A DNA stretch of 64,000 bases from Candidatus Egaibacter danicus. Its GTDB lineage: Bacteria > Pseudomonadota > Gammaproteobacteria > Burkholderiales > Burkholderiaceae_C. The stretch spans positions 261,082-325,081 of the forward strand of contig JADJII010000002.1 of assembly GCA_016707075.1 (NCBI GenBank). Reading direction: 5' to 3'. Numbering within the stretch: position 1 is the stretch's first letter; each line of letters opens with the position of its first letter. The notes beneath the pieces were generated by a model, which worked only from the letters and a program-made list of their open reading frames with translations, was not told where the DNA came from and made no database searches. The position numbers and the translations under genes are program-made. Below, piece by piece: positions 22,640 to 64,000 of this stretch.

Positions 22640-22695
22640 CCGTCTGTCAGCTAAACGCAAGCAATTCGCCGGGCGCGCTGGCGCAAAATGGCTCC

Positions 22696-23439
22696 ATGCG
22701 ACTCTTGTTGGTTGAGGACGATGTGATGGTGGCCAGCGGCATCAAGCTGGGCCTCACCGACGCGGGCTACGCGGTGGATTGGGTTGGCAGCGCCGAGCGG
22801 GCGATGGAAGCTACCCGAACTGAGGCATTTGATGTGGCCGTGGTCGATATCGGGCTGCCCCTGATGGATGGGCTGGCCCTCACGCAGCGGTTACGCAAAT
22901 CCGGCTTTGCCATGCCCGTGCTGATTCTCACCGCGCGCGATGCCTTGCAGGACCGGGTTCAGGGGCTGGACATGGGTGCAGATGACTATATGACCAAGCC
23001 TTTTGAGTTGCCCGAATTGTTAGCCCGGCTGCGGGCCTTGCTTCGGCGCTCGCAGGCGGCTACCTCTGCCGTGTTGAGCTTTGGGCCGTTGGAAATGGAT
23101 ACCGCCAAACGTCAGGCGTTTATTCGTTCCGGGCCAGTTGCCGGTCAGACAGCCGGTTACACACCTTCGGTCCAACTGATCGAGTTTGGTCCCCGCGAGT
23201 GGACTGTCATGGAGTATTTGCTTTTGCAGGTCCCCAAGCCTGCCAACAAAGACAAGCTGTTGCTGGCGCTTACCGGCTGGGACAAGGAAATCACTCCCAA
23301 CGCCGTGGAGGTCTACATCTCGCGCCTGCGCGGCAAGCTTGAACCCTTTGGCATAGCGCTGAGATCGATTCGCGGGTTTGGCTATCGCCTTGAACTGACC
23401 GAAGACGAGCCAGCCCCAATGCCCGACACCGGCCGTTGA
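22696..23439 (+). CDS. OmpR/QseB-family response regulator
   Basis: Receiver domain (LLVEDD..DIGLP..TARD..GADDYMTKPF) and winged-helix output (..NAVEVYISRLRGKL..GFGYRL). Confidence 0.9.
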   Translation: MRLLLVEDDVMVASGIKLGLTDAGYAVDWVGSAERAMEATRTEAFDVAVVDIGLPLMDGLALTQRLRKSGFAMPVLILTARDALQDRVQGLDMGADDYMTKPFELPELLARLRALLRRSQAATSAVLSFGPLEMDTAKRQAFIRSGPVAGQTAGYTPSVQLIEFGPREWTVMEYLLLQVPKPANKDKLLLALTGWDKEITPNAVEVYISRLRGKLEPFGIALRSIRGFGYRLELTEDEPAPMPDTGR

Positions 23440-23442
23440 CGC

Positions 23443-24921
23443 ATGCACACGTCTGCGGTCATTGGTACCGGACTGCGGCAGCGTTTGCTGCTGCTGCTGC
23501 TGATGCCGTTGATCCTTCTTGCGGGCGTCAGCACCTGGTTCGACTACAGGCAAGCCGGTGATACTGCGTTGCAGCAGGATCGCCAGCTCCTGGGCCTGGT
23601 TCCCCTGCTGGCTGACTCGGTGATTGCCCGCGGTCAGACAGCCATTGACGCGCCGGTGCTACTCATGGCGCCCCCGGTGGAAGAGTTCCTCAAGCAGCGC
23701 TCCGGCGTTGCCGCATTTGGTATCGCCAGCCCGGATGGACAGATGTTGATTGGTGAGCCCTGGCTGGGCGGGGCTTTGCCGTCAACCCGGGAGCCCGAAT
23801 TTTCGAGTGAAGTGGAAGATGGCGTGACCTACCGCATTGTCACGCAGCGTGTGCATACGGTGGCAGGCGACCTGGTGATGTACCTGGCCGACGGCTCCGA
23901 CTCGCGGCAACAGTGGCTGCGTCTGGTGCTCCTCAAAGTGGTGTTACCCAATCTGGTGCTGGCCGTTGTCGCCTTGTTCGCCATCAATTGGGCTGTGCGC
24001 CGCGCACTGCGCCCGCTGATCGAACTGAAAGAGGCTGTGGAACGCCGCTCGCCCCGCGATTTGAGTGCGCTGGATACGATGGCCTCGCCCGAGGAAGTGC
24101 GCCCGCTGGTGTCGTCGATCAACCGGTTGCTGGACCTTGTGAACGCCCAGACCGAAAGCCAGCGACGCTTCGTGGCTGACGCTGCGCACCAGTTGCGTAC
24201 ACCGCTGGCCGGCTTGCAGGCGCAGGTCGAAGCGTGGGCCCAGGCGGCCAACACAGCATCACAAGACGGCAAAAATACTCCAAATATGGAGTCAAATAGG
24301 CCTCTAGCCCTCGTGGAATATGCGCAACCAGCTATCATTTTAGGAGTGAATGAGGTTAGCCAGTTGCGGGACGCCGTTCGCCGCACCTCGCAGCTGGCTA
24401 ACCAGCTACTGGCCTTGTCACGCGCTGACGCGCTGGCGCTGGATACGCAACCCATGCAACCCCTTGACTTGAAGGACCTGTGCGAAAGCTTGCTGGAGGT
24501 TCATCTCAACACGGCTACCGCCAAGCACATCGACCTGGGTCTCGACGCCAGATCCATTCATGTCACAGGCCACGAATGGCTGTTGCGCGAAATGGTAGGG
24601 AACCTGCTGGACAATGCGGTGAAGTACACGTCCGAAGGTGGCACGGTGACGTTGCGTTGTGGCTACAGGACGCCATCCGGGATGGCAGAACGTCCCACCC
24701 GGGCGTTCATCGAAGTGGAGGATGACGGCCCGGGTGTGCCAGTGGACGAGCGTGACAAGGTGCTGGAGCGTTTTTACCGTGTGCCTGGCGTGGCGGGCCA
24801 GGGCAACGGGCTGGGGTTGGCGATAGCGCAGGAGATCGCTCACGTGCATGGCAGCGCTTTGGAGGTGGGCGCAGGACCCCATGGACGCGGATTGCGCGTC
24901 ACCATGGTGTTTCCGCCCTAG
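23443..24921 (+). CDS. QseC-type sensor histidine kinase carrying an in-frame AT-rich insertion in the DHp region
   Basis: Two TM segments, H-box FVADAAHQLRTPL, N-box LLDNAVKY, G-boxes DDGPGV and GNGLGLAI. Confidence 0.9.
   Translation: MHTSAVIGTGLRQRLLLLLLMPLILLAGVSTWFDYRQAGDTALQQDRQLLGLVPLLADSVIARGQTAIDAPVLLMAPPVEEFLKQRSGVAAFGIASPDGQMLIGEPWLGGALPSTREPEFSSEVEDGVTYRIVTQRVHTVAGDLVMYLADGSDSRQQWLRLVLLKVVLPNLVLAVVALFAINWAVRRALRPLIELKEAVERRSPRDLSALDTMASPEEVRPLVSSINRLLDLVNAQTESQRRFVADAAHQLRTPLAGLQAQVEAWAQAANTASQDGKNTPNMESNRPLALVEYAQPAIILGVNEVSQLRDAVRRTSQLANQLLALSRADALALDTQPMQPLDLKDLCESLLEVHLNTATAKHIDLGLDARSIHVTGHEWLLREMVGNLLDNAVKYTSEGGTVTLRCGYRTPSGMAERPTRAFIEVEDDGPGVPVDERDKVLERFYRVPGVAGQGNGLGLAIAQEIAHVHGSALEVGAGPHGRGLRVTMVFPP
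24268..24356 (+). repeat. Dispersed AT-rich repeat, copy A, in-frame inside the sensor kinase
   Basis: ccaaatatgg..ctctagccctcgtggaatatgcgcaaccagctatcatttt is colinear with the copies at 35.5 kb, 40.2 kb (reverse) and 62.4 kb. Translated as DGKNTPNMESNRPLALVEYAQPAIILGVNEV. Confidence 0.7.
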
Positions 24922-34746: not shown

Positions 34747-35511
34747 ATGACCGATATCCTGATCGACACCACCAACGGCGTCATGACCATCACGCTGAAC
34801 CGGGTGGACAAAAAGAACTCCATCACCGCCGACATGTACGCCAGCATGGCAGACGGGCTGGCCGCTGCCGAGGCTGACGCCGCCGTGCGCGTTGTCGTGT
34901 TCCAGGGCCACGAAACCATCTTCAGTGCTGGTAACGACATTGGCGACTTTCTGAATGCCAAGCCTTCTGCCGGCGACGCGCCGGTGTTCCGCTTTCTGCG
35001 CGGTATTGCTACGTTTCCCAAACCGCTGGTGGCAGCAGTCTGCGGCCCGGCTGTCGGTGTCGGCACGACGATGCTGTTTCATTGCGATCTGGTGTATGCG
35101 GGCGACAACGCGGCGTTCTCCATGCCGTTTGTGAACCTGGGTCTGTGCCCGGAAGCTGGCTCCAGCCTGCTGGTGCCGCAAATGATGGGTTATCACCGCG
35201 CAGCCGAGGCGTTGCTGCTGGGCGAACCCTTCCTGGCCGAAGCGGCGCTGGAAGTAGGCCTGGTGAACCGCGTGGTGCCACCGACCGAGGCCAACGCCGT
35301 GGCGCAGGCGCAGGCACGCAAGCTGGCTGCCAAGCCCCTGAGTTCGTTGATCGAAACCAAGCGCTTGATGAAAAAAGGTCAGTCAGCGCAGGTGCTGGCG
35401 CAAATCGGGGAAGAGGCCGTCAGTTTCGGGCGCATGCTGCGCGAGCCTGCGGCGCGTGAGGCTTTCACTGCGTTCATGGAAAAACGGCGACCGGATTTCT
35501 CCGGTGTTTGA
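34747..35511 (+). CDS. Enoyl-CoA hydratase/isomerase
   Basis: Crotonase signature ..FSAGNDI.., ..AAVCGPAVGVGTT.., ..PEAGSS... Confidence 0.85.
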   Translation: MTDILIDTTNGVMTITLNRVDKKNSITADMYASMADGLAAAEADAAVRVVVFQGHETIFSAGNDIGDFLNAKPSAGDAPVFRFLRGIATFPKPLVAAVCGPAVGVGTTMLFHCDLVYAGDNAAFSMPFVNLGLCPEAGSSLLVPQMMGYHRAAEALLLGEPFLAEAALEVGLVNRVVPPTEANAVAQAQARKLAAKPLSSLIETKRLMKKGQSAQVLAQIGEEAVSFGRMLREPAAREAFTAFMEKRRPDFSGV

Positions 35512-35585
35512 TGCCTTTTTCTGCCTTTAGCCCTTGCTGGATATGCGCAAGTAGCTATTAAAACAGTAGCTACTTACTACGCAAT
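35511..35585 (+). repeat. Dispersed AT-rich repeat, copy B (intergenic)
   Basis: cctttagcccttgctggatatgcgcaagtagctattaaaacagtagctac, with an internal GTAGCTA/TAGCTAC stem. Starts at the stop codon of the hydratase gene. Confidence 0.7.
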
Positions 35586-35586
35586 T

Positions 35587-36177
35587 CTATTTGCGTAACT
35601 CAGGTGACTCACCCAGTACGGTGACCAGTCGGGACAACGCATCGTTGGATGCACGCACGGCGGCCAGCGAGAAGTTGCTCTTGAATTCGTCAAATTCGGC
35701 CTTGCCATTGCCAGTCACGCTGAAGCTGCGCACCGGCTTGCCTGCGGCGTCGGTGACTGTGCAGGCCAACGTCACGGAAAACTGGGTTGGAGGCCAGGTG
35801 AAGGGGCTGGGTGAAGCCGACGTGGTGGTGATTTCAGGCACGATCAAAAGAGAGATACCGCTTGTGCGCAAGCTCTCCAGATCTTTCGGGTCCTTGACCT
35901 TGGAGACGCTACGGAACACCTCGGTCAACGCCTTGTAAATGCCGGGCTCCAGATCGCGGTAGGGAAAGTAACGAACCTTGTCGCCGCCGCCACCTGGCGT
36001 GGTGACCTCCTGGGCTTTGCTGGCGTCGGAGATGTGAAACCCCACCTGTTTGTCGATCAGCGGACTGCCTTTGGCTTGAATGGTTGCCAGGTCGGGGTTC
36101 AAGGTAATCGGGTGTGCACATCCGAACAGGGCGATACAGGCCAGGCTGGCCAGCAGGAGTTTGGCTACTTGTTTCAT
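35587..36177 (-). CDS. Lipoprotein of unknown function
   Basis: Signal peptide with lipobox LFG-C (MKQVAKLLLASLACIALFGCAHP). Confidence 0.6.
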   Translation of the reverse strand: MKQVAKLLLASLACIALFGCAHPITLNPDLATIQAKGSPLIDKQVGFHISDASKAQEVTTPGGGGDKVRYFPYRDLEPGIYKALTEVFRSVSKVKDPKDLESLRTSGISLLIVPEITTTSASPSPFTWPPTQFSVTLACTVTDAAGKPVRSFSVTGNGKAEFDEFKSNFSLAAVRASNDALSRLVTVLGESPELRK

Positions 36178-39724: not shown

Positions 39725-40209
39725 CCCGACACACCGAAGTTGCGTCCGATGTTGAATTTGAACCCGAGTTCATGGAGGGTTTGAAAAAGATATTCGAAGA
39801 ACTGATTGTTTTCAACCAGGTGCTGGGGCTGCGGATCACGTCGATCAAGGCAGACCGGGTGACGGCACGGATGGATATGCGTCGCGAGCTGGTTGGCCAC
39901 TACGCCCACAACCGTGTGCACGGCGGCGTGATCAGCGCCGGGCTGGACACCATGGGTGGGCTGGCGGTCATGGCTGCGATTGGCGCGCGGCATATGGATG
40001 AACCACCAGCGGAACGGCTTCTGCGTTTTGGCAAACTCGGGACGATCGATCTGCGTGTGGACTACCTGCGCCCGGGCATTGCGGACCATTTCGAACTGAG
40101 GGCCGAGGTTATGCGCCTGGGCTCGCGCGTGGCGTCTACACGCATGGAGTTTTGCGGGCCAGACGGCAAGCTGTTTTCCACTGGGTCTGCTGCCTACATC
40201 GTGTCCTGA
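39721..40209 (+). CDS. PaaI/YigI-type hotdog-fold thioesterase
   Basis: ..HNRVHGGVISAGLDTMGG... ATG 39721 overlaps the ACAD stop (ATGA). Confidence 0.7.
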   Translation: MTRHTEVASDVEFEPEFMEGLKKIFEELIVFNQVLGLRITSIKADRVTARMDMRRELVGHYAHNRVHGGVISAGLDTMGGLAVMAAIGARHMDEPPAERLLRFGKLGTIDLRVDYLRPGIADHFELRAEVMRLGSRVASTRMEFCGPDGKLFSTGSAAYIVS

Positions 40210-40275
40210 GTTGCTATTGAAATAATAGCTGGTTGCGCATATTCCACAGACGCTAGCCCCATATTTGGCATAAAA
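40209..40275 (-). repeat. Dispersed AT-rich repeat, copy C (intergenic, reverse orientation)
   Basis: The reverse complement reads ccaaatatggggctagcgtctgtggaatatgcgcaaccagctattatttcaatagc. It has a 23-nt exact match to copy A (gtggaatatgcgcaaccagctat). Confidence 0.75.
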
Positions 40276-40316: not shown

Positions 40317-41504
40317 TCAGGGTTTGGACGCAAAGTATTCTGAAACCGGTTTCCACTTGCCATCGGTGATTTGCGACAGACGCGACGCATCGTTGCCGAG
40401 GCGTTTGGTTCCGGTGAAGGTCTGTGCAGGGCCTCCAAACATGTCAGGTGGGACAGTCATCGAGTCCATGACCTTGATGAAGCTCTCTGTGGTCAGGTTC
40501 TTGCCAGCCCTTCCTGCCGCGACAGCAAAAGTGTCGATGATGCTGTAGCCATAGACTGAGAAAACTGTCGGGTCTTCATTGAACTTGGTCTTGTACTTGT
40601 TTGCCCAGAAAGCGATGTCCTTGGATGGGTCATCGGTGTACGGGTTTTGCACGGTGTTGGTGGCGTACAAGCCATTCATGGCGGGACCCCCCAGCTTGTG
40701 AATCAGGTCGGTGTAGGCCGCACTGGAGCCCAGAAAGATCGGGTTGTAGCCGAGTTTTCGGGCCGTGCCGATGGCACCGATGGTTTCGCGGATGATGGTG
40801 CCCAGCACAATCATGTCGCAACCACTGGCCTGCATTTTCTGAACCTGCGAAGAGAAGTCGGTTGCGCCACGCTTGTAGGACGTTTTTTCCGCAAACTCCA
40901 TGTTCACCGTCTTCAGACCGGCTTCTCCACCTTTCAGCACTTCCTGGCCAAAGTCATCGTCCTGGTACATCGTGCAAACCTTCTTGGCGCCTTTCTCCTT
41001 CACCAGCTTGGGCACGGCATTGCGCATCTGGTCGTAGTAGGTGGCTGCGTAGGAGTACTTGAGTTTGTGGAAGGGCTCATACATTTCGCGTGCGGCCGTG
41101 ATCGGGAAGAAATTGATCACGTTCTTTTCAAACTGCACAGGCATGGCCGCCAGGTTCTGCGCGGTGCCAATGTGGCCGACCATCATGAAAATCTTGTCCT
41201 GATTGACCAGCTTTTGCGCAGCAAGAACGGCCTTCTTGGGATCGTAGGCCGAGTCTTCCACGATGATCTTGATCTTGCGGCCATTGATTCCGCCTTGCTC
41301 ATTGATTTCGTCAACCCGCAACAACATGCCCAAGCGGGCTTGCTTTCCAAAACCGGCGATAGGGCCGGACAAGTCCTGGATGGAGCCCAGTGTGATTTCC
41401 GTCGCACTCACGCCCTGTGGAGGCGCAGCTTTCTGGGCTTGCGCCAGGGTTGCGCCCAGAGCCATGGTGGCCAGAACAGTTGCAGTTCTCGTCGTCAGTT
41501 TCAT
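40317..41504 (-). CDS. Liv-type (family 4) ABC substrate-binding protein
   Basis: Signal peptide MKLTTRTATVLATMALGATLAQA. Periplasmic_binding_protein-6-like sequence. AGGAG ribosome-binding site before ATG 41504. Confidence 0.85.
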   Translation of the reverse strand: MKLTTRTATVLATMALGATLAQAQKAAPPQGVSATEITLGSIQDLSGPIAGFGKQARLGMLLRVDEINEQGGINGRKIKIIVEDSAYDPKKAVLAAQKLVNQDKIFMMVGHIGTAQNLAAMPVQFEKNVINFFPITAAREMYEPFHKLKYSYAATYYDQMRNAVPKLVKEKGAKKVCTMYQDDDFGQEVLKGGEAGLKTVNMEFAEKTSYKRGATDFSSQVQKMQASGCDMIVLGTIIRETIGAIGTARKLGYNPIFLGSSAAYTDLIHKLGGPAMNGLYATNTVQNPYTDDPSKDIAFWANKYKTKFNEDPTVFSVYGYSIIDTFAVAAGRAGKNLTTESFIKVMDSMTVPPDMFGGPAQTFTGTKRLGNDASRLSQITDGKWKPVSEYFASKP

Positions 41505-41543
41505 CGTCGTCTCCTTAGAAAATAAAGCCTTCAATCCAGTTAC

Positions 41544-50418: not shown

Positions 50419-51474
50419 ATGACCGCAACCCGAAATTCCCAGGCTTCACAACAGCTCACCATCACCCGCCCGGACGACTGGCACCTGCATGTGCGCGATG
50501 GTGACGCGCTCAAAACTGTCGTGCCCCACACGGCAGCGCAGTTTGGCCGAGCCATCATCATGCCCAACCTGAAGCCGCCGGTGACCACGGCGGCGCAGGC
50601 GCTCGCCTATGCCGACCGCATCCGTGCGGCAGTGCCAGAAGGCGTGAAGTTCGATCCTTTGATGACGCTGTACCTTACCGACAACCTGCCGGCGGACGAA
50701 ATCCGTCGGGCCAAAGATGCCGGTGTTGTTGCCGTCAAGCTGTATCCGGCAGGCGCCACCACCAACAGCGATGCGGGTGTGACCGACCTGCGCAAGACCT
50801 ATAAAACACTGGAGGCCATGCAGCGCGAAGGCTTGCCGCTCCTGGTGCATGGTGAAGTGACCTCACCCGACATTGACCTGTTTGACCGGGAGGCCGTATT
50901 CATCGACACCCAATTGATTCCCCTGCGGCGTGATTTCCCGGAACTGAAAATTGTTTTTGAACACATCACCACGCGTGAAGCGGCGCACTATGTTCAGGCG
51001 GCAGACCGCTTCACCGCAGCCACCATCACGGCGCACCACCTGCTGTACAACCGCAACGCCATTTTCACCGGCGGCATCCGGCCGCATTACTACTGTCTAC
51101 CGGTTCTGAAGCGGGAAACCCACCGTCTGGCGCTGGTGGAGGCTGCGACCAGTGGCAGCGTGAACTTCTTCCTCGGCACCGACAGCGCACCGCATCCCGC
51201 CCACCTGAAAGAACATGCCACGGGTTGTGCCGGGTGTTACACCGCACATGCTGCAATGGAAATGTATGCTGAAGTTTTTGATGCAGCAGGTGCTCTGGAT
51301 AAATTGGAGGGATTTGCGAGTTTTTATGGCGCTGATTTTTATGGCTTGCCGCGCAATACCGGTCGCATCACTTTGAAGCGTGAATCGTGGACACCACCTG
51401 AGAGTTTTTCATTTGGAGATGCTGCGTTGAAACCCCTGCGCTCGGGCGAAGCATTGCTGTGGCGCCTGGCCTAG
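50419..51474 (+). CDS. pyrC: Dihydroorotase, homodimeric type
   Basis: ..[11 protein letters not shown].., ..IMPNL.PP.., ..[11 protein letters not shown].., ..FEHITT.., ..FLGTDSAPH... Confidence 0.9.
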
Positions 51475-52211
51475 AAGGTATCAACTGGCTGGCCCCCTGG
51501 CTGGCTCCCTACCAGGAGTTGGGCCAGCGCATTGCCCATTTGACAGACGCAGGCCAGACGTGCGCGCAATCGCTGAACGCACAGAACGCTTGTCCCGTGG
51601 CATTTGTTCCGCAATCGGATTTGCCGGCAGGCGTGGCCTACGAAGAGTTCATCTTCAATACGGGCAAGGTTCCGACACGCGATGGTCTGCACGACTTCTT
51701 CAATGGTTTGTGCTGGATGCATTTTCCGCAAACCAAGCAGCGCCTGAACCAGTTGCAGGCAGCTCAAATTGCCCTGACCGGCATCCAGCCCGTGCGTGGA
51801 CCTGCGCGCGACGCACTCACGGTATTTGACGAAAACGCCGCTTTCTTGCAGGCACCTGATGCATTGTGGGAGGCGTTGGTGGCCAAAGACTGGCACGCCC
51901 TGTTTGTCACACTGCGTCCGCTTTGGGGCCAGGCTCACCTGGTGTTATTTGGACACGCGCTGCTGGAGAAGCTGGTTTCCCCCCGAAAAGCGATCACAGC
52001 CCACGTGTATCGTGCGCAGTCAGCTACCAATTCAATAGCAAATCTGGATGATTGGGTAGCGGCTGACTTGAGCGCCGAAAGGCTCTCCGGCAAACCTTTT
52101 GCGCATTTGCCGGTATTGGGGGTGCCACTCTGGTGTTCAGAGAACGAAGATCCGGCGTTCTACGAAGACACCACGGTATTTCGCGCCAATAACCGTAAAT
52201 CTCATGTGTAA
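51459..52211 (+). CDS. DUF3025-family protein
   Basis: 250-aa conserved-looking ORF immediately after pyrC (GTG start overlapping it). Motif ..[18 protein letters not shown]... Confidence 0.55.
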
Positions 52212-56047: not shown

Positions 56048-56393
56048 GTGAAGCCCGCCAGACTGCCGCTGGTGCAATCCTGGAAACAGGGCACTGGAGG
56101 AACGTCCGGACTGCATAGGGCAGCGTAGCAGCTAACGGCTGTCCACTGAAAGCCTTTCGTGAAAGCGATGGGTATAAGGTGAGGATCAGAGCAACAGAGA
56201 CGAGCCGCTTGAGTGCGGGTGAAACGGGCAATCTCTACGCGCAGCAATACCAAGTAGGCACACGTTGACGGGGCCCCCGGAGTGTGCGGGTAGGTAGCAC
56301 CGAGCCACTGAGCGATCAGTGGCCCAGATTAATGGCAGTCACGTTGGAGGCAACTTCAACGCACAGAATCCGGCTTATCGGTGGGCTTCACAC
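56048..56393 (+). ncRNA. rnpB: RNase P RNA, bacterial type A
   Basis: P1 pairing GUGAAGCCCGCC / GGUGGGCUUCAC. Universal blocks GGAGGAACGUCCGGAC, CAUAGGGCAG, GCAACAGAGA, GGGUGAAACGG, ACAGAAUCCGGCUUAUCGG, colinear with E. coli M1 RNA. Followed by a T6 tract. Confidence 0.9.
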
Positions 56394-61753: not shown

Positions 61754-61954
61754 ATGGAAACACCAAGACTCCGGGTCGGGAAACCGATCTCACCCGAGCA
61801 GTTCGATGAATTGACCGACGAGCAACTGGCCCGTCTGGTGCCCCGCGCCTACCGCGAGTTTTTCCCTGGCAAGGACTTCTGTGCCGACGGCTATTTCTAC
61901 CTGCACGACGGCAATGCGTGGAGCTTCTACAAGGGCGGGTTTGTGGACGACTGA
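61754..61954 (+). CDS. Hypothetical 66-aa protein
   Basis: METPRLRVGKPISPEQFDELTDEQLARLVPRAYREFFPGKDFCADGYFYLHDGNAWSFYKGGFVDD is non-repetitive and looks protein-like. It is the only part of shadow ORF 60959..61954 not antisense to the MFS gene. Confidence 0.4.
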   Translation: METPRLRVGKPISPEQFDELTDEQLARLVPRAYREFFPGKDFCADGYFYLHDGNAWSFYKGGFVDD

Positions 61955-63591
61955 ATCCGCTGCACATGCGCCAGCAGCGAGCGTTTGGCGACCGGCCACA
62001 TGCGCGGTGGTACGTCGTCATAGGCTTTTGAAACCCAGTCGTCCATGGTGCCGTCCGGCAGGGCCTGCATCACCCGCAGAATCTTGGCTTCGCGCTTCAG
62101 GCGGTGGGCTTTGAGGTGGGCGATAGCGTCGCTAGCTCGGGCCAGCGCGTAGCCGTGGGCGGGCAGGATGAAATCGATGTGGTGTGCTTCGCAGGCCGCG
62201 GTCAGGATATCCAGCGACGTCAGGTAATCGGTCATGTCGCCATCGGGTGGGTCGATCACGGTGGTGCTGCCGTTCAGGATGTGGTCGCCGCTGAACAGCA
62301 GGCCATCTTCCAGCAACACCAGGCACAGGTGGTTGGCGGCATGGCCCGGGGTGTAAATAACCTTTAAAGTATGAGCCAAATCGGCATCTAGCCCTCGTCC
62401 ATTATGCGTTAGTAGCTCCTGATTTTGTAGCGTTCTGTCGGGCGTGAACTCACTGGCCGCACGGGATGTGGGAGCGCTGGGCAGGCCCAAGATGGGCGGC
62501 TGGGGGTGGCCGTTTTTCACGCACAGCGCCTGCAGCGGCCGCGCGCCGGGCGAGTGGTCCGGATGCGAATGGGTGCAGACAATCTGGTGGATGTCGCCAC
62601 CCGCTGCGCGCCACAGCTTTTCAATGTGCTCGGGGTCGGCTGGGCCGGGGTCGATCACGGTGTAGCCAGTGTTGGGGTCACCCACCAGGTAGCTGTTGGT
62701 GCCGGGGCCGGTCATCGCGCCGGGGTTGGGCGCGGTCAGCCGCATCACGTTGCGCAGCAGTTGCACGGGCTGTTCGGTCTGCCAGTCCAGGTGGTGCACG
62801 ATCTGCCCGTCGGGCGACACCAGCTCCAGCTCGCCATACGGATGCTCGTGCTCCATGTAGCGCGCCTCCCTGCCCGCCAGAAACCCGGCGCGCGGGCAGC
62901 TGGTCCACAGTGGCTGCTCGGTGGCCGCACAGGCCTGCAGCACGGCGTCCACGGTGGCAAAGGATTGCAGGCGCTCCAGCGTGCGGATGGTGGGAAAAAT
63001 GATGAAGAAGTTGCCTGCCTCGTGCCGGGCCAGCGCATCTGCCGGGCGCACCCACACGGGCTCGAACTGCTCGGACTCGTCGGCCACCGGCGTCTGCCCT
63101 TCGGGCATGCGCGCCACCAGAAACGGCACGTCAAAACGGCGCGACAGGTCGCGGTCGGTGATCCAGTGCGCCAGCACAAACACCTCGTCAGCGCACAGCG
63201 TCAGGCCACGCGCCTTGCATTGGGCGGCGAACGGCGCCTTGCGGTCCAGCGCAGCAATGTCGGCGGTGGTGGGCGATGTGCCGTCCGCGTGGCGGGCCAG
63301 CAGCACGCCCAGCTCTTCAAAACTCTCGCGGATGGCCGCGATGGCTTGTGTGAGGTGCAGGTCGCTTTGGGTGGCGCGTCTTGTCGATTGCGCATGACTG
63401 GTTGCGTCGGCTGCGTCCACACCGCCACCGGGGAAGACGTAGGCACCGGGCGCGAAGCTGGCTGTCGTCGAGCGACGGGTCATCAGGACCTCGATGCCTT
63501 GCGGACTGTCGCGCAGCAGGAGGACCGTTGCGGCTGGGCGGGTGGCAACCGGTTCGCGCTGGGTGTGGAGGAGTTGGGATATTCTGACCAT
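61927..63591 (-). CDS. Nudix hydrolase - metallo-beta-lactamase-fold fusion protein
   Basis: N-terminal Nudix box ..FPGGGVD(x18)..AIAAIRESFEELGVLL... C-terminal MBL motifs THSHPDHSPGA, TPGHAANH, FSGDH, LPAHG. Start at ATG 63591. Confidence 0.75.
   Translation of the reverse strand: MVRISQLLHTQREPVATRPAATVLLLRDSPQGIEVLMTRRSTTASFAPGAYVFPGGGVDAADATSHAQSTRRATQSDLHLTQAIAAIRESFEELGVLLARHADGTSPTTADIAALDRKAPFAAQCKARGLTLCADEVFVLAHWITDRDLSRRFDVPFLVARMPEGQTPVADESEQFEPVWVRPADALARHEAGNFFIIFPTIRTLERLQSFATVDAVLQACAATEQPLWTSCPRAGFLAGREARYMEHEHPYGELELVSPDGQIVHHLDWQTEQPVQLLRNVMRLTAPNPGAMTGPGTNSYLVGDPNTGYTVIDPGPADPEHIEKLWRAAGGDIHQIVCTHSHPDHSPGARPLQALCVKNGHPQPPILGLPSAPTSRAASEFTPDRTLQNQELLTHNGRGLDADLAHTLKVIYTPGHAANHLCLVLLEDGLLFSGDHILNGSTTVIDPPDGDMTDYLTSLDILTAACEAHHIDFILPAHGYALARASDAIAHLKAHRLKREAKILRVMQALPDGTMDDWVSKAYDDVPPRMWPVAKRSLLAHVQRIQSSTNPPL
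62353..62436 (+). repeat. Dispersed AT-rich repeat, copy D, embedded in-frame (antisense) in the MBL domain
   Basis: gagccaaatcggcatctagccctcgtccattatgcgttagtagctcctgattttgtagcg aligns colinearly with copies A and B (12-mer tctagccctcgt identical to A). Translated on the minus strand as TLQNQELLTHNGRGLDADLAHTLKVIY. Confidence 0.6.
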
Positions 63592-63626
63592 TTGGTGATT
63601 TTGCACTCCGTGCAGGGGTTTGTTTT

Positions 63627-63980
63627 CCCCACTCACTCCCCCAGCTCCTCTCCCGCCCCGCCGGGCGGAAGAGGGGAGCCTTATTTGGTTGTTGGTGTCT
63701 TGTTACGGAAATATTGGGGAAGATCCCCACTGTTTTTTTGAGTGGCAAGGCTTCAGGTGTTGAGTTCCGAGCGCCGGAGGCGCAACGGTTTGCGGCTGTT
63801 TCAACTCCCCTTCAACCCGGGCCGCCTCCGGCGCTCGGAACTAGTACCCGGAAACCTCAACACACCAAGAGCAGTGGTGACCTCTCCCGATATTTCCCCA
63901 TCCGGCGCGCAGAAGCAAAATCAAAGGCTCCCTCTTCCGCCCGGCGGGGCGGGAGAGGGCGGGGGGAGTGAGTGGGGGCT
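63627..63980. repeat. Composite palindrome of about 350 bp (possible MITE-like or structured element)
   Basis: Outer arms ccccactcactccccc..ctctcccgccccgccgggcggaagagg..gagcc (63627-63680) match their reverse complement at 63925-63980. The middle block ggaaatat.ggg..cc.cactg is mirrored. The inner perfect 19-bp stem is 63764-63782 / 63823-63841, around a 40-nt loop. Confidence 0.8.
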
Positions 63981-64000
63981 ACAAAAGCAAGTAAACAAGC

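Follow-up and report, generated by a model that had tools for sequence, protein, structure and literature searches.

An in-frame copy of a dispersed AT-rich repeat in the DHp connector of a QseC/PmrB/TctE-like sensor kinase

The kinase gene and its extended DHp connector

The window, that is, the whole stretch of 64,000 nucleotides analysed here from contig JADJII010000002.1 of Candidatus Egaibacter danicus, contains an operon for an OmpR-family response regulator and its partner sensor histidine kinase (Table 1). The regulator is PmrA/TctD/QseB-like and falls under every NCBIfam equivalog cut-off. The kinase is a QseC/PmrB/TctE-like protein of the HisKA type, in which a 2CSK_N sensor domain and a HAMP domain are present. 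It did not qualify as an equivalog of QseC, PmrB or TctE: the top NCBIfam match was QseC, which scored 183 bits where the cut-off is 475. (The name TctE attached to the kinase by JGI is a source label and nothing more.) The H, N, G1, F and G2 motifs are invariant in 121 homologues, with invariant columns at H249, N391, DxGxG and GxGLGL.

Table 1. Coordinates of the operon, the kinase connector and the repeat copies in the window.
Feature	Position	Strand	Evidence or context
OmpR-family response regulator gene, kinase partner	22696..23439	+	ORF; Pfam Response_reg and Trans_reg_C
Sensor histidine kinase gene, 492 aa	23443..24921	+	2CSK_N, HAMP, HisKA, HATPase_c (Pfam)
DHp helix 1, residues 217-275	24091..24267	+	AlphaFold2
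Phospho-acceptor His249 codon, CAC	24187-24189	+	H249 invariant
AT-rich in-frame segment (repeat copy A), residues 276-305	24268..24356	+	GC 0.42; low-pLDDT coil; 25 residues extra relative to QseC
Part aligning to repeat profile	24274..24355	+	nhmmer; strongest-supported core 24291-24349
Local palindrome ACTCCAAATATGGAGT	24277..24292	.	5' edge of insert; this lineage only
DHp helix 2, residues 302-328	24346..24426	+	AlphaFold2
Repeat copy B	35520..35570	+	Fills the 75-nt spacer of convergent genes 34747..35511 (+) and 35587..36177 (-)
Repeat copy D	40212..40269	-	Directly downstream of the intrinsic-terminator-like hairpin of gene 40317..41534 (-)
Repeat copy E, partial (profile positions 15-59)	51997..52041	+	Within DUF3025 gene 51459..52211 (+)
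Repeat copy C	62375..62432	+	Antisense within Nudix and MBL-fold gene 61927..63636 (-)

The Pfam HisKA match ends at residue 267, corresponding to position 29 of the 66 in the profile, and the AlphaFold2 monomer model consists of a helix (217-275), a coil (276-301) and a second helix (302-328), the pLDDT of the coil falling below 50 over residues 278-291. The segment thus lies between the H-box helix and the second DHp helix, where an earlier note on this DNA had placed it. The same note had put the connector at about 25 residues longer than that of E. coli QseC, and this agrees with a phmmer alignment to PDB 3jz3, in which 37 residues of the kinase face 12 of QseC and 25 are left over. Relative to HK853, the excess is 24 residues. 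The spacer between the H-box and helix 2 is 67 residues long in the kinase, compared to 39-40 in 97 of 125 representatives of the wider family and at least 62 in five of them. Against the nearest short-loop orthologues, the net gain is smaller, about 20 codons (roughly 24274-24333), and the final eight or so AT-rich codons (AIILGVNEV) stand where the start of a native helix 2 would be. The in-frame gain stands, with this correction to the boundary first drawn around it. AlphaFold2 predicts a low-confidence coil for the tip of the hairpin, and in the four-helix bundle the added stretch would be a flexible loop, exposed to solvent at the end far from the membrane.

A dispersed repeat in the coding sequence

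Codons 276-305 (24268-24357) translate as GKNTPNMESNRPLALVEYAQPAIILGVNEV. The peptide given in the earlier note begins one codon early, at D275. As had been claimed, the segment is in-frame and stop-free, the kinase ORF being open throughout with the repeat included, and it is AT-rich within a GC-rich gene: the GC content is 0.42 at 24270-24359 and 0.63-0.69 on either side.

A repeat search tied 24289-24355 to positions 35512, 62373 and 40205 (the last on the reverse strand). The membership of the segment in a repeat family, first proposed from nucleotide similarity, proved significant with two nhmmer profiles from which kinase copies were excluded. The leave-one-out profile, built from copies B, C, D and E without kinase copy A, matched 24274-24355 with E = 2.6e-13, and a second profile, built from 55 non-kinase copies from the window and 80 related loci, matched the kinase segment with E = 2.4e-17. 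The converged profile is 59 nt long, and the consensus of this AT-rich repeat of about 60 nt, which is dispersed across Comamonadaceae, is AAATAGGCCTCTAGCCCTCGTGGAAAATGCGCAAGCAGCTATTAATTTAATAGCAAA.

We considered the possibility that the connector is merely a long native loop of low complexity that resembles the repeat by chance or composition. Connector length does vary in the subfamily, and unrelated long loops exist in two wider-family proteins (P0243 and P0244, whose spacers measure 82-83 residues) and at one further locus (L048). However, chance resemblance does not account for E-values of 1e-13 to 1e-17 from profiles lacking kinase copies, for the short or GC-normal loops that give no match at all, or for the exact run of 23 nt common to copy A and copy D, its closest relative in the window. 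We regard this explanation as refuted by the leave-one-out and non-kinase profiles.

Only one sense frame is open in the repeat consensus (..PNRPLALVENAQAAINLIAN..), and copy A uses that frame. It would therefore be translated, lengthening the connector by about 20-27 residues. The palindrome at the 5' edge of the insert is part of a partial duplication of the 5' end of the repeat (CCAAATATGGAG / TCAAATAGGCC), and is missing from more distant orthologues.

The window contains five copies of the repeat. Copy E is read in the same frame as the kinase copy and has an orthologue in Rhodoferax sediminis (L086, 17920-17984), while copy C, translated as LQNQELLTHNGRGLDADLA, has orthologues in L088 and L086, and its peptide is conserved among homologues. 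When the related loci were included, copies were found inside the ORFs of DUF3025, Nudix-MBL, dapF and RlmI-like genes, and also at the N-termini of genes of the DctP-like and Ldh_2-like types. In dapF, the one non-kinase gene assessed for genuine added length, the gain is about 10 aa. The DUF3025 gene with copy E has no net extra length relative to its Pfam profile. At some gene starts, the repeat supplies the ribosome-binding site, the start codon and signal-peptide residues. A BLAST search with copy D against 72,556 plasmids gave no match. The family lies in-frame in several unrelated genes.

Age and origin of the insert

Among 81 species-level orthologues, loop length is bimodal: short loops of 16-24 aa have normal GC content, and long loops of 33-42 aa have a GC content of 0.41-0.62 between flanks of 0.61-0.74. 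The non-kinase profile matched 25 long-loop forms in a constant register and none of the short-loop orthologues. The insert is thus present in about 25 of the 81 orthologues, with site and frame unchanged, in Rhodoferax, Acidovorax and one further clade, which include orthologues at about 55-67% identity. All relatives at 79-99% identity carry it, and close relatives (79% identity or more) yielded no empty site. Three candidate empty sites (P0065, P0074 and P0089) were rejected, since they keep the 3' signature of the insert (VNIGA, AIQLEA) and have the appearance of partial deletions.

Since homologues without the segment exist, the segment is an insertion, and the comparison indicates that the long loop is the derived state and the short loop the ancestral one. 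The segment is missing from the short-loop orthologues and the wider family, an absence for which the earlier note had proposed to look. Distant orthologues bearing the same segment at normal GC content would have spoken against an inserted repeat; no short or GC-normal loop matched the repeat. The colonisation of a coding gene by an in-frame repeat is thereby upheld, but not its confinement to this genome: the insertion is old and common to related genera, neither recent nor private to this genome, and as such represents a genuine case of a known, uncommon route of protein sequence gain.

A recent disruptive insertion, a pseudogene or an assembly artefact might be suspected from the atypical composition alone. 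Against this, the frame is kept in 27 orthologues from independent assemblies, whose indels come in multiples of three, and a protein 99% identical to the kinase is present in an independent metagenome (P0001). Furthermore, amino-acid identity among relatives drops to 43-77% in the insert from 93-97% in the flanks, which indicates strong purifying selection on the latter. These three observations refute an artefact or a decayed gene. The position in a loop would tolerate added length without breaking the fold, leaving the kinase intact and under purifying selection.

The homology to the repeat, the frame, position, derived polarity and age of the insert, and the intactness of the gene are demonstrated. 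The best explanation, to which we assign a probability of roughly 0.8, is that a copy of the dispersed AT-rich repeat was fixed in-frame, long ago, in the connector DNA of a QseC/PmrB/TctE-like kinase. The kinase phylogeny bears on how often this happened. In a neighbor-joining tree calculated with the loop removed, the carrier clades were grouped in 0 of 100 bootstraps and were separated by short-loop clades, and two carriers (L008 and L010) fell with a short-loop Ramlibacter group in 84 of 100. A single origin consequently requires several losses or lateral spread. It is less likely that the site was instead hit repeatedly and independently by lineage-specific repeats, or that extragenic copies kept replacing the in-kinase one through gene conversion (concerted evolution). 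Shared variants point in this direction: TGCTCAAGC occurs in both in-kinase copies and all six extragenic copies of L008 and L010, compared to 0 of 21 and 0 of 49 elsewhere; the Acidovorax copies share AGCGC and GCTATTGTTTT; and copies A and D of the window share AACCAGC. Each of these variants alone has, by a rough estimate, a chance of about 0.1 of being a coincidence, however, and there is no significant within-genome matching between the kinase copy and its nearest copy. All 25 matches share site and frame, and the insert ends in TTTAGGAG in all clades, unlike the extragenic TTTAATAGC. The 5' part of the loop, beyond the repeat core, is also common to the clades (AWREKYERN, AWPEKNKPN, ADWRDR), including a gene of the Rhodoferax clade and one of the Acidovorax clade, which argues against independent events.

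Rare codons and the relation to known repeats

We infer that the peptide of the anciently fixed insert is largely a tolerated passenger. A pure passenger, however, leaves the codon usage unaccounted for, as the 3' part of the insert keeps rare AT-rich codons in 27 lineages. Counting these related lineages as if they were independent, alanine is encoded by GCT in 25 of 25 cases (background 8%), leucine by TTA in 18 of 24 (background 0.9%) and glycine by GGA in 19 of 19 (background 5%). A third-position T is invariant while the amino acid varies (T, V, N or I), and the synonymous sites of flanking invariant codons are scrambled across the same lineages.

Such a pattern could arise if selection on the nucleic acid itself kept the copy in the gene, through a putative protein-binding site or RNA-level signal that the extragenic copies would also contain; in that case the kinase loop would simply offer room for such a site within an ORF. 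We consider this unlikely, and the corresponding extension, that the kinase loop, the MBL-fold gene, dapF, DUF3025 and several N-termini are dual-coded, with rare codons held by a nucleic-acid motif, is equally doubtful. Besides the codons in the kinase, it would fit the conservation of the extragenic consensus across genera, the retention of the codons CTA CAA by the copy in the MBL-fold gene in four genera, and a second, inverted copy adjoining the regulator start codon in many Rhodoferax-clade operons, the reverse complement of which places GGAGG about 7-8 nt ahead of the ATG.

Several results speak against this reading. The repeat appears weakly palindromic at most, with one hairpin of 5-6 bp; the earlier description of it as palindromic probably overstates this feature. 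In a model with two short hairpins, 72% of cells pair, but column shuffles pair equally well and there is no covariation. RNAalifold gave no consensus structure for 55 extragenic copies, and single-sequence folds were no more stable than shuffled ones (z-scores of -2.0 to +0.45). Rfam 15, searched both at the gathering threshold and with E relaxed to 1, matched RNase P alone in the window and left the repeat unmatched. A scan for sigma-70-like promoters over 23900-24700 found none, and the minus-strand terminator-like match in that scan is merely the local palindrome at 24277-24292. An internal start after the conserved AGGAG was rejected because a start is not conserved: 8 nt further on, 13 genes have ATC as the in-frame codon, six have GTG, four have GTC and four have others. 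Nor does the kinase copy co-vary within genomes with the inverted one that precedes the regulator gene (0.577 versus 0.565, p = 0.24), as pairing or gene conversion between them would lead one to expect, and upstream of the regulator in this window there is only a degenerate remnant of the repeat. The codon counts also suffer from the relatedness of the lineages. If this explanation were true, the repeat would have altered many proteins in GC-rich bacteria of free-living habit, much as RPEs did in Rickettsia. Kept rare codons in GC-rich genes could pass for recent horizontal transfer or assembly error.

The element is RPE-like or intragenic-REP-like, where RPE-like denotes a functional class and not a sequence family. 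Of the features of that class, the following are present: a dispersed multi-copy family with extragenic members, an intact stop-free ORF, homologues without the segment and several unrelated host genes. The earlier note called in-frame colonisation rare outside Rickettsia, but it is documented too for REPs, ERIC and other MITEs (PMC3733652, PMC10969869). Like the present repeat, the RPEs of Rickettsia are small dispersed elements found both extragenically and inside unrelated conserved genes in a stop-free frame, are inherited by orthologues of related species, and place their peptide where the fold tolerates it (PMC10969869). However, RPEs are about 100-150 nt long and reside in reduced intracellular genomes, whereas the repeat described here is about 60 nt long, weakly palindromic and AT-rich against the GC-rich background of a free-living betaproteobacterial family, and has no sequence relation to RPEs.

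Intragenic REPs with GTAG or CGTC tags (Di Nocera et al. 2013) are likewise mostly extragenic and near gene ends, with a minority wholly in ORFs and translated, and some supply stop or start signals (PMC3733652), a further likeness to the present repeat; Comamonadaceae were not covered by that survey. The repeat does not conform to the REP/REPIN definition of a 20-40 bp palindrome with a GTAG/CGTC tag: it is not a near-perfect palindrome of that size, and in place of a consistent terminal tag, ATAGC or GTAGC occurs only in an arm of the second hairpin. No RAYT gene was noticed in the 64 kb of the window or the 10-kb flanks of the related loci. ERIC and other MITEs with in-frame fusions are also small mobile repeats whose open frames add peptide (PMC10969869). 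The consensus ends here (AAATAGG.. and ..AATAGCAAA) are in direct orientation and not inverted like those of MITEs, and by inspection no target-site duplication could be recognised beside the copies. BRE (Hot et al. 2011) has been reported from Bordetella and from Comamonadaceae (Polaromonas, Rhodoferax, Acidovorax, Delftia), and some of its copies lie in coding sequence (PMC3110155). As described, BRE is about 90 bp long, 69% GC and often tandem, in contrast to the short, AT-rich and dispersed repeat found here, and we rejected an identity between the two on these differences in length, GC content and arrangement. In the literature searched, BRE was the only repeat found, and no such AT-rich repeat was described in free-living GC-rich Comamonadaceae; the repeat is thus apparently an undescribed RPE-like family. 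Protein growth by small repeats is thereby extended to bacteria other than obligate intracellular ones.

The insert sits in exactly the DHp connector whose length and handedness are reported to decide between cis and trans autophosphorylation (Ashenberg, Keating and Laub 2013, as cited in PMC5956149). As a lead only, the insert may tune the handedness of the bundle and its regulator-docking properties, because the connector sets handedness and adjoins the docking surface. Since both connector lengths exist in sister lineages, such an effect is directly testable: the same kinase with a connector of either 16-24 or 33-42 residues constitutes a natural experiment.

The kinase insert as a repeat copy

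The regulator–kinase gene pair (Table) is flanked by argB upstream and slmA downstream. The kinase is QseC/PmrB-like, falls below all NCBIfam equivalog cut-offs, and is labeled "TctE" by one source only. Its HisKA match (Pfam) breaks off at residue 267, corresponding to position 29 of 66 in the profile. The earlier note had described a conspicuously AT-rich repeat copy (copy A), translated within the kinase ORF without a stop. Both points were confirmed: codons 276–305 are open, and the GC content of the insert is 0.42, compared to 0.63–0.69 in both flanks.

A repeat search within the window found 24289–24355 again at 35512–35556 (copy B) and 62373–62417 (copy C), inverted at 40205–40267 (copy D), and partially at 52013–52048 (copy E). 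Copies A and D have an exact 23-mer, GTGGAATATGCGCAACCAGCTAT, in common. An nhmmer profile made from the four other window copies only recovered 24274–24355 at E = 2.6e-13 and also matched loci of other Comamonadaceae. Upon iteration, the profile converged on a 59-nt core, and a profile from only the 55 copies outside kinase genes matched the window kinase copy at E = 2.4e-17. The consensus, AAATAGGCCTCTAGCCCTCGTGGAAAATGCGCAAGCAGCTATTAATTTAATAGCAAA, has one open sense frame (PNRPLALVENAQAAINLIAN) and one open antisense frame (QFAIKLIAACAFSTRARGLFG), and no others; the kinase copy is read in the sense frame. By these sequence matches, the insert is a genuine copy of a dispersed repeat.

The insert had been placed between the H-box helix and the second helix of the dimerisation/phosphotransfer (DHp) hairpin, making the connector about 25 residues longer than in E. 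coli QseC. The alignment to QseC (PDB 3jz3) splits, with 37 kinase residues facing 12 QseC residues, in agreement with this estimate; in the alignment to HK853, 45 residues face 21. Of the best 150 matches from 1.84 billion representatives, 125 had both anchor motifs identifiable; between the H-box and helix 2 (LLxLSR motif), the spacer measured 39–40 residues in 97 of these and at least 62 in only five. Since the corresponding spacer in the window kinase is 67 residues, the long connector is derived. An AlphaFold2 monomer model (121-sequence alignment, mean pLDDT 78) predicted a helix at 217–275, coil at 276–301 and a helix at 302–328, with pLDDT < 50 at 278–291. The model thus places the insert, as a loop predicted with low confidence, at the membrane-distal tip of the DHp hairpin, consistent with the location and the extra tip loop proposed previously. 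The position may be functionally interesting: according to Ashenberg et al. (2013, as cited in PMC5956149), whether autophosphorylation occurs in cis or in trans is set by the DHp connector.

Unrelated, still longer connector inserts occur in the kinase subfamily (homologous proteins P0243 and P0244, spacers of 82–83 residues), and a Polaromonas MAG has a 49-aa connector loop of unrelated sequence (locus L048, 10664–10906). Extra sequence thus seems to accumulate readily in the DHp connector, as in a general hot spot.

Age, origin and constraint

The insert is present in all close relatives (99, 90, 88 and 79–81% identity). Among 81 orthologues (the window gene and 80 species-representative loci), connector length is bimodal. 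Ramlibacter, most Polaromonas, Variovorax and Caenimonas have short connectors of 16–24 aa, equal in GC content to their flanks, whereas Rhodoferax, Acidovorax, Simplicispira and the clade of loci L008/L010 have long connectors of 33–42 aa, with a GC content of 0.41–0.62 versus 0.61–0.74 in the flanks. Of the 81 genes, 25 have a connector whose sense strand matched the non-kinase profile, and none of these is a short form. All of these matches end 33–50 nt (mostly 37–42) before the RRTSQL anchor, and therefore have the same site and frame. The 39-aa "ADWRDR" loops at normal GC, the 29–30-aa Paracidovorax loops and the proteins P0065, P0074 and P0089, in which VNIGA or AIQLEA is kept, look like drifted or partly deleted descendants of the insert. 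Genomes with short-loop kinases still hold repeat copies elsewhere (e.g., L019, L030, L079, L071), so the pattern that the earlier note had set against its own reading, the segment at normal GC in distant relatives lacking the repeat family, was not found. This distribution is the main correction to the original finding: the insertion is old and common to several genera.

The most likely history is one old insertion event, with later losses or lateral spread. Site and frame are identical in all connector matches, the in-kinase copies end in TTTAGGAG and the extragenic copies in TTTAATAGC, and the 5' part beyond the repeat core is shared (AWREKYERN in L007, AWPEKNKPN in L080, and the ADWRDR forms). 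The kinase tree (neighbor-joining, loop removed, 100 bootstraps), however, speaks against a simple vertical history: the carrier clades were united in 0 of 100 bootstraps, Acidovorax and Paracidovorax grouped with Polaromonas in 65, and L008/L010 with the Ramlibacter group in 84. So do repeat variants that are specific to a lineage and found in both its in-kinase and its extragenic copies (TGCTCAAGC, confined to L008/L010; AGCGC and GCTATTGTTTT, which mark Acidovorax). A matched-genome test of in-kinase against regulator-upstream copies was not significant (0.577 versus 0.565, p = 0.24). Repeated reinsertion at the connector, or concerted evolution, is the less likely reading.

In the closest relatives, amino-acid identity is 43–77% in the insert, compared to 93–97% in the flanking DHp; constraint on the peptide is weak. 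Rare codons are kept in the 3' part of the insert across 27 lineages: Ala is GCT in 25/25 (background 8%), Leu is TTA in 18/24 (0.9%) and, at the second Leu position, CTA in 10/14 (1.8%), and Gly is GGA in 19/19 (5%). At codon −9 the amino acid varies, yet 26 of 27 genes have T as its third base, whereas synonymous positions of flanking invariant codons are scrambled across the same lineages. This contrast is real, while the binomial values for the counts ignore shared ancestry. Checks for a reason behind this codon retention were negative: the repeat hairpins showed no covariation and no unusual folding stability, there was no Rfam family for the repeat, no promoter was predicted at the insert, and an internal start codon in it is not conserved. 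Of the "palindromic repeat" described previously, the repeat stands, but the palindrome appears only weak.

Repeat copies in other genes and comparison with known repeats

Coordinates of the kinase gene pair and of repeat copies in or next to genes. L numbers are related Comamonadaceae loci; other positions are those of the window.
Feature	Position	Strand	Remarks
OmpR-type response regulator gene	22696..23439		directly before kinase gene
Sensor histidine kinase gene	23443..24921	+	492 aa; 2CSK_N, HAMP, HisKA, HATPase_c (ORF + Pfam)
Kinase insert (copy A)	24268-24357	+	codons 276-305, no stop: GKNTPNMESNRPLALVEYAQPAIILGVNEV
Copy E, partial	51997-52041	+	in DUF3025 gene 51459..52211 (+); kinase-copy frame
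Copy C	62375-62432		antisense in Nudix + MBL-fold gene 61927..63636 (-); read as LQNQELLTHNGRGLDADLA
dapF copy, full-length	L088 9449-9514; L086 9442-9522		kinase-copy sense frame; read as WPLALVEPEQAAIVYVAVV
RlmI-like methyltransferase copy	L088 6629-6696		open antisense frame; read as DASFLIAACASAVRARARF; GC 0.39 vs 0.63 in gene
Gene-start copies	L019 17911-17962; L030 17843; L079 19467; L071 18027; L064; L061; L055		
Further gene-start copies	Acidovorax L056 15070, L070, L073, L075, L076, L078; also L071 13171		
Regulator-upstream copies (examples)	L014 9231-9289; L002 9141-9196; L005; L013; L021; L024; L037; L040; L063; others	-	

Repeat insertion is not unique to the kinase gene. Both copy E and copy C have detectable counterparts at the orthologous site in other genera. 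For copy E, this is Rhodoferax sediminis (L086 17920–17984); the DUF3025 gene has no net added length relative to the Pfam profile, so the copy may coincide with native sequence instead of extending it. In copy C, the consensus stops of the frame that is read have been mutated away. The segment is kept by ≈80%-identity homologues in Rhodoferax, Polaromonas and Variovorax, and the DNA-level match persists in L088 and L086. The dapF copy has a GC content of 0.48 versus 0.64–0.68 for the gene, and its region exceeds solved DapF structures by ≈10 residues, with native strands partly overlaid. In other cases, a repeat copy supplies the opening codons of a gene, as in those for a DctP-like periplasmic protein (signal peptide, MNQRFAIKLVAACAILAGATA), an Ldh_2-like dehydrogenase (N-terminal helix) and a small secreted protein of Acidovorax (MVKAVAAIVLVA), whose GGAG and ATG both fall within the repeat. 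The response-regulator ATG is directly preceded by an inverted copy in 13 Rhodoferax-clade loci, and the reverse complement of this copy gives a GGAGG Shine–Dalgarno ≈7–8 nt before the ATG; in the window, only a degenerate, GC-enriched remnant (..GCTGGCGCAAAATGGCTCCATG) lies upstream of the regulator, at 22640–22695.

Many homologues of the Nudix + MBL-fold protein (P0128, P0133, P0136 and others) carry the JGI label "recombination protein RecT". This name finds no support in their Pfam domains (NUDIX, Lactamase_B, BLACT_WH) and is probably a spread annotation error.

Small repeats lying in frame inside genes are well known among Rickettsia palindromic elements (RPEs), ERIC sequences and other MITEs (PMC10969869), and among REPs of the GTAG or CGTC type (PMC3733652). 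Such colonisation is thus on record outside Rickettsia, where the earlier note had called it rare. The Comamonadaceae repeat behaves as an RPE. Unlike REPs, it has no GTAG tag, and unlike MITEs, it has no terminal inverted repeats or target duplication. It also differs from BRE, by its published description a GC-rich 90-bp Betaproteobacterial element (PMC3110155). The repeat is outside all defined sequence families compared, and no description of it was found in the searchable literature, which is absence of evidence only; this coding-compatible family is apparently undescribed. The observation is confirmed, and its interpretation as an in-frame repeat insertion in the DHp connector is supported, with age, spread across genera, an apparently weak palindrome and occurrence in other genes as corrections.

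The window contains a second, unrelated repeat type, consisting of GC-rich inverted repeats with nested palindromes (56425–56504/57479–57558 and 63619–63985; e.g., CCTCTCCCGCCCCGCCGGGCGGAAGAGGG, arms 100% complementary), which might be BRE or REP-like elements. One set lies directly downstream of the class A bacterial RNase P RNA gene (56050–56393, 206 bits), the sole Rfam match in the window.
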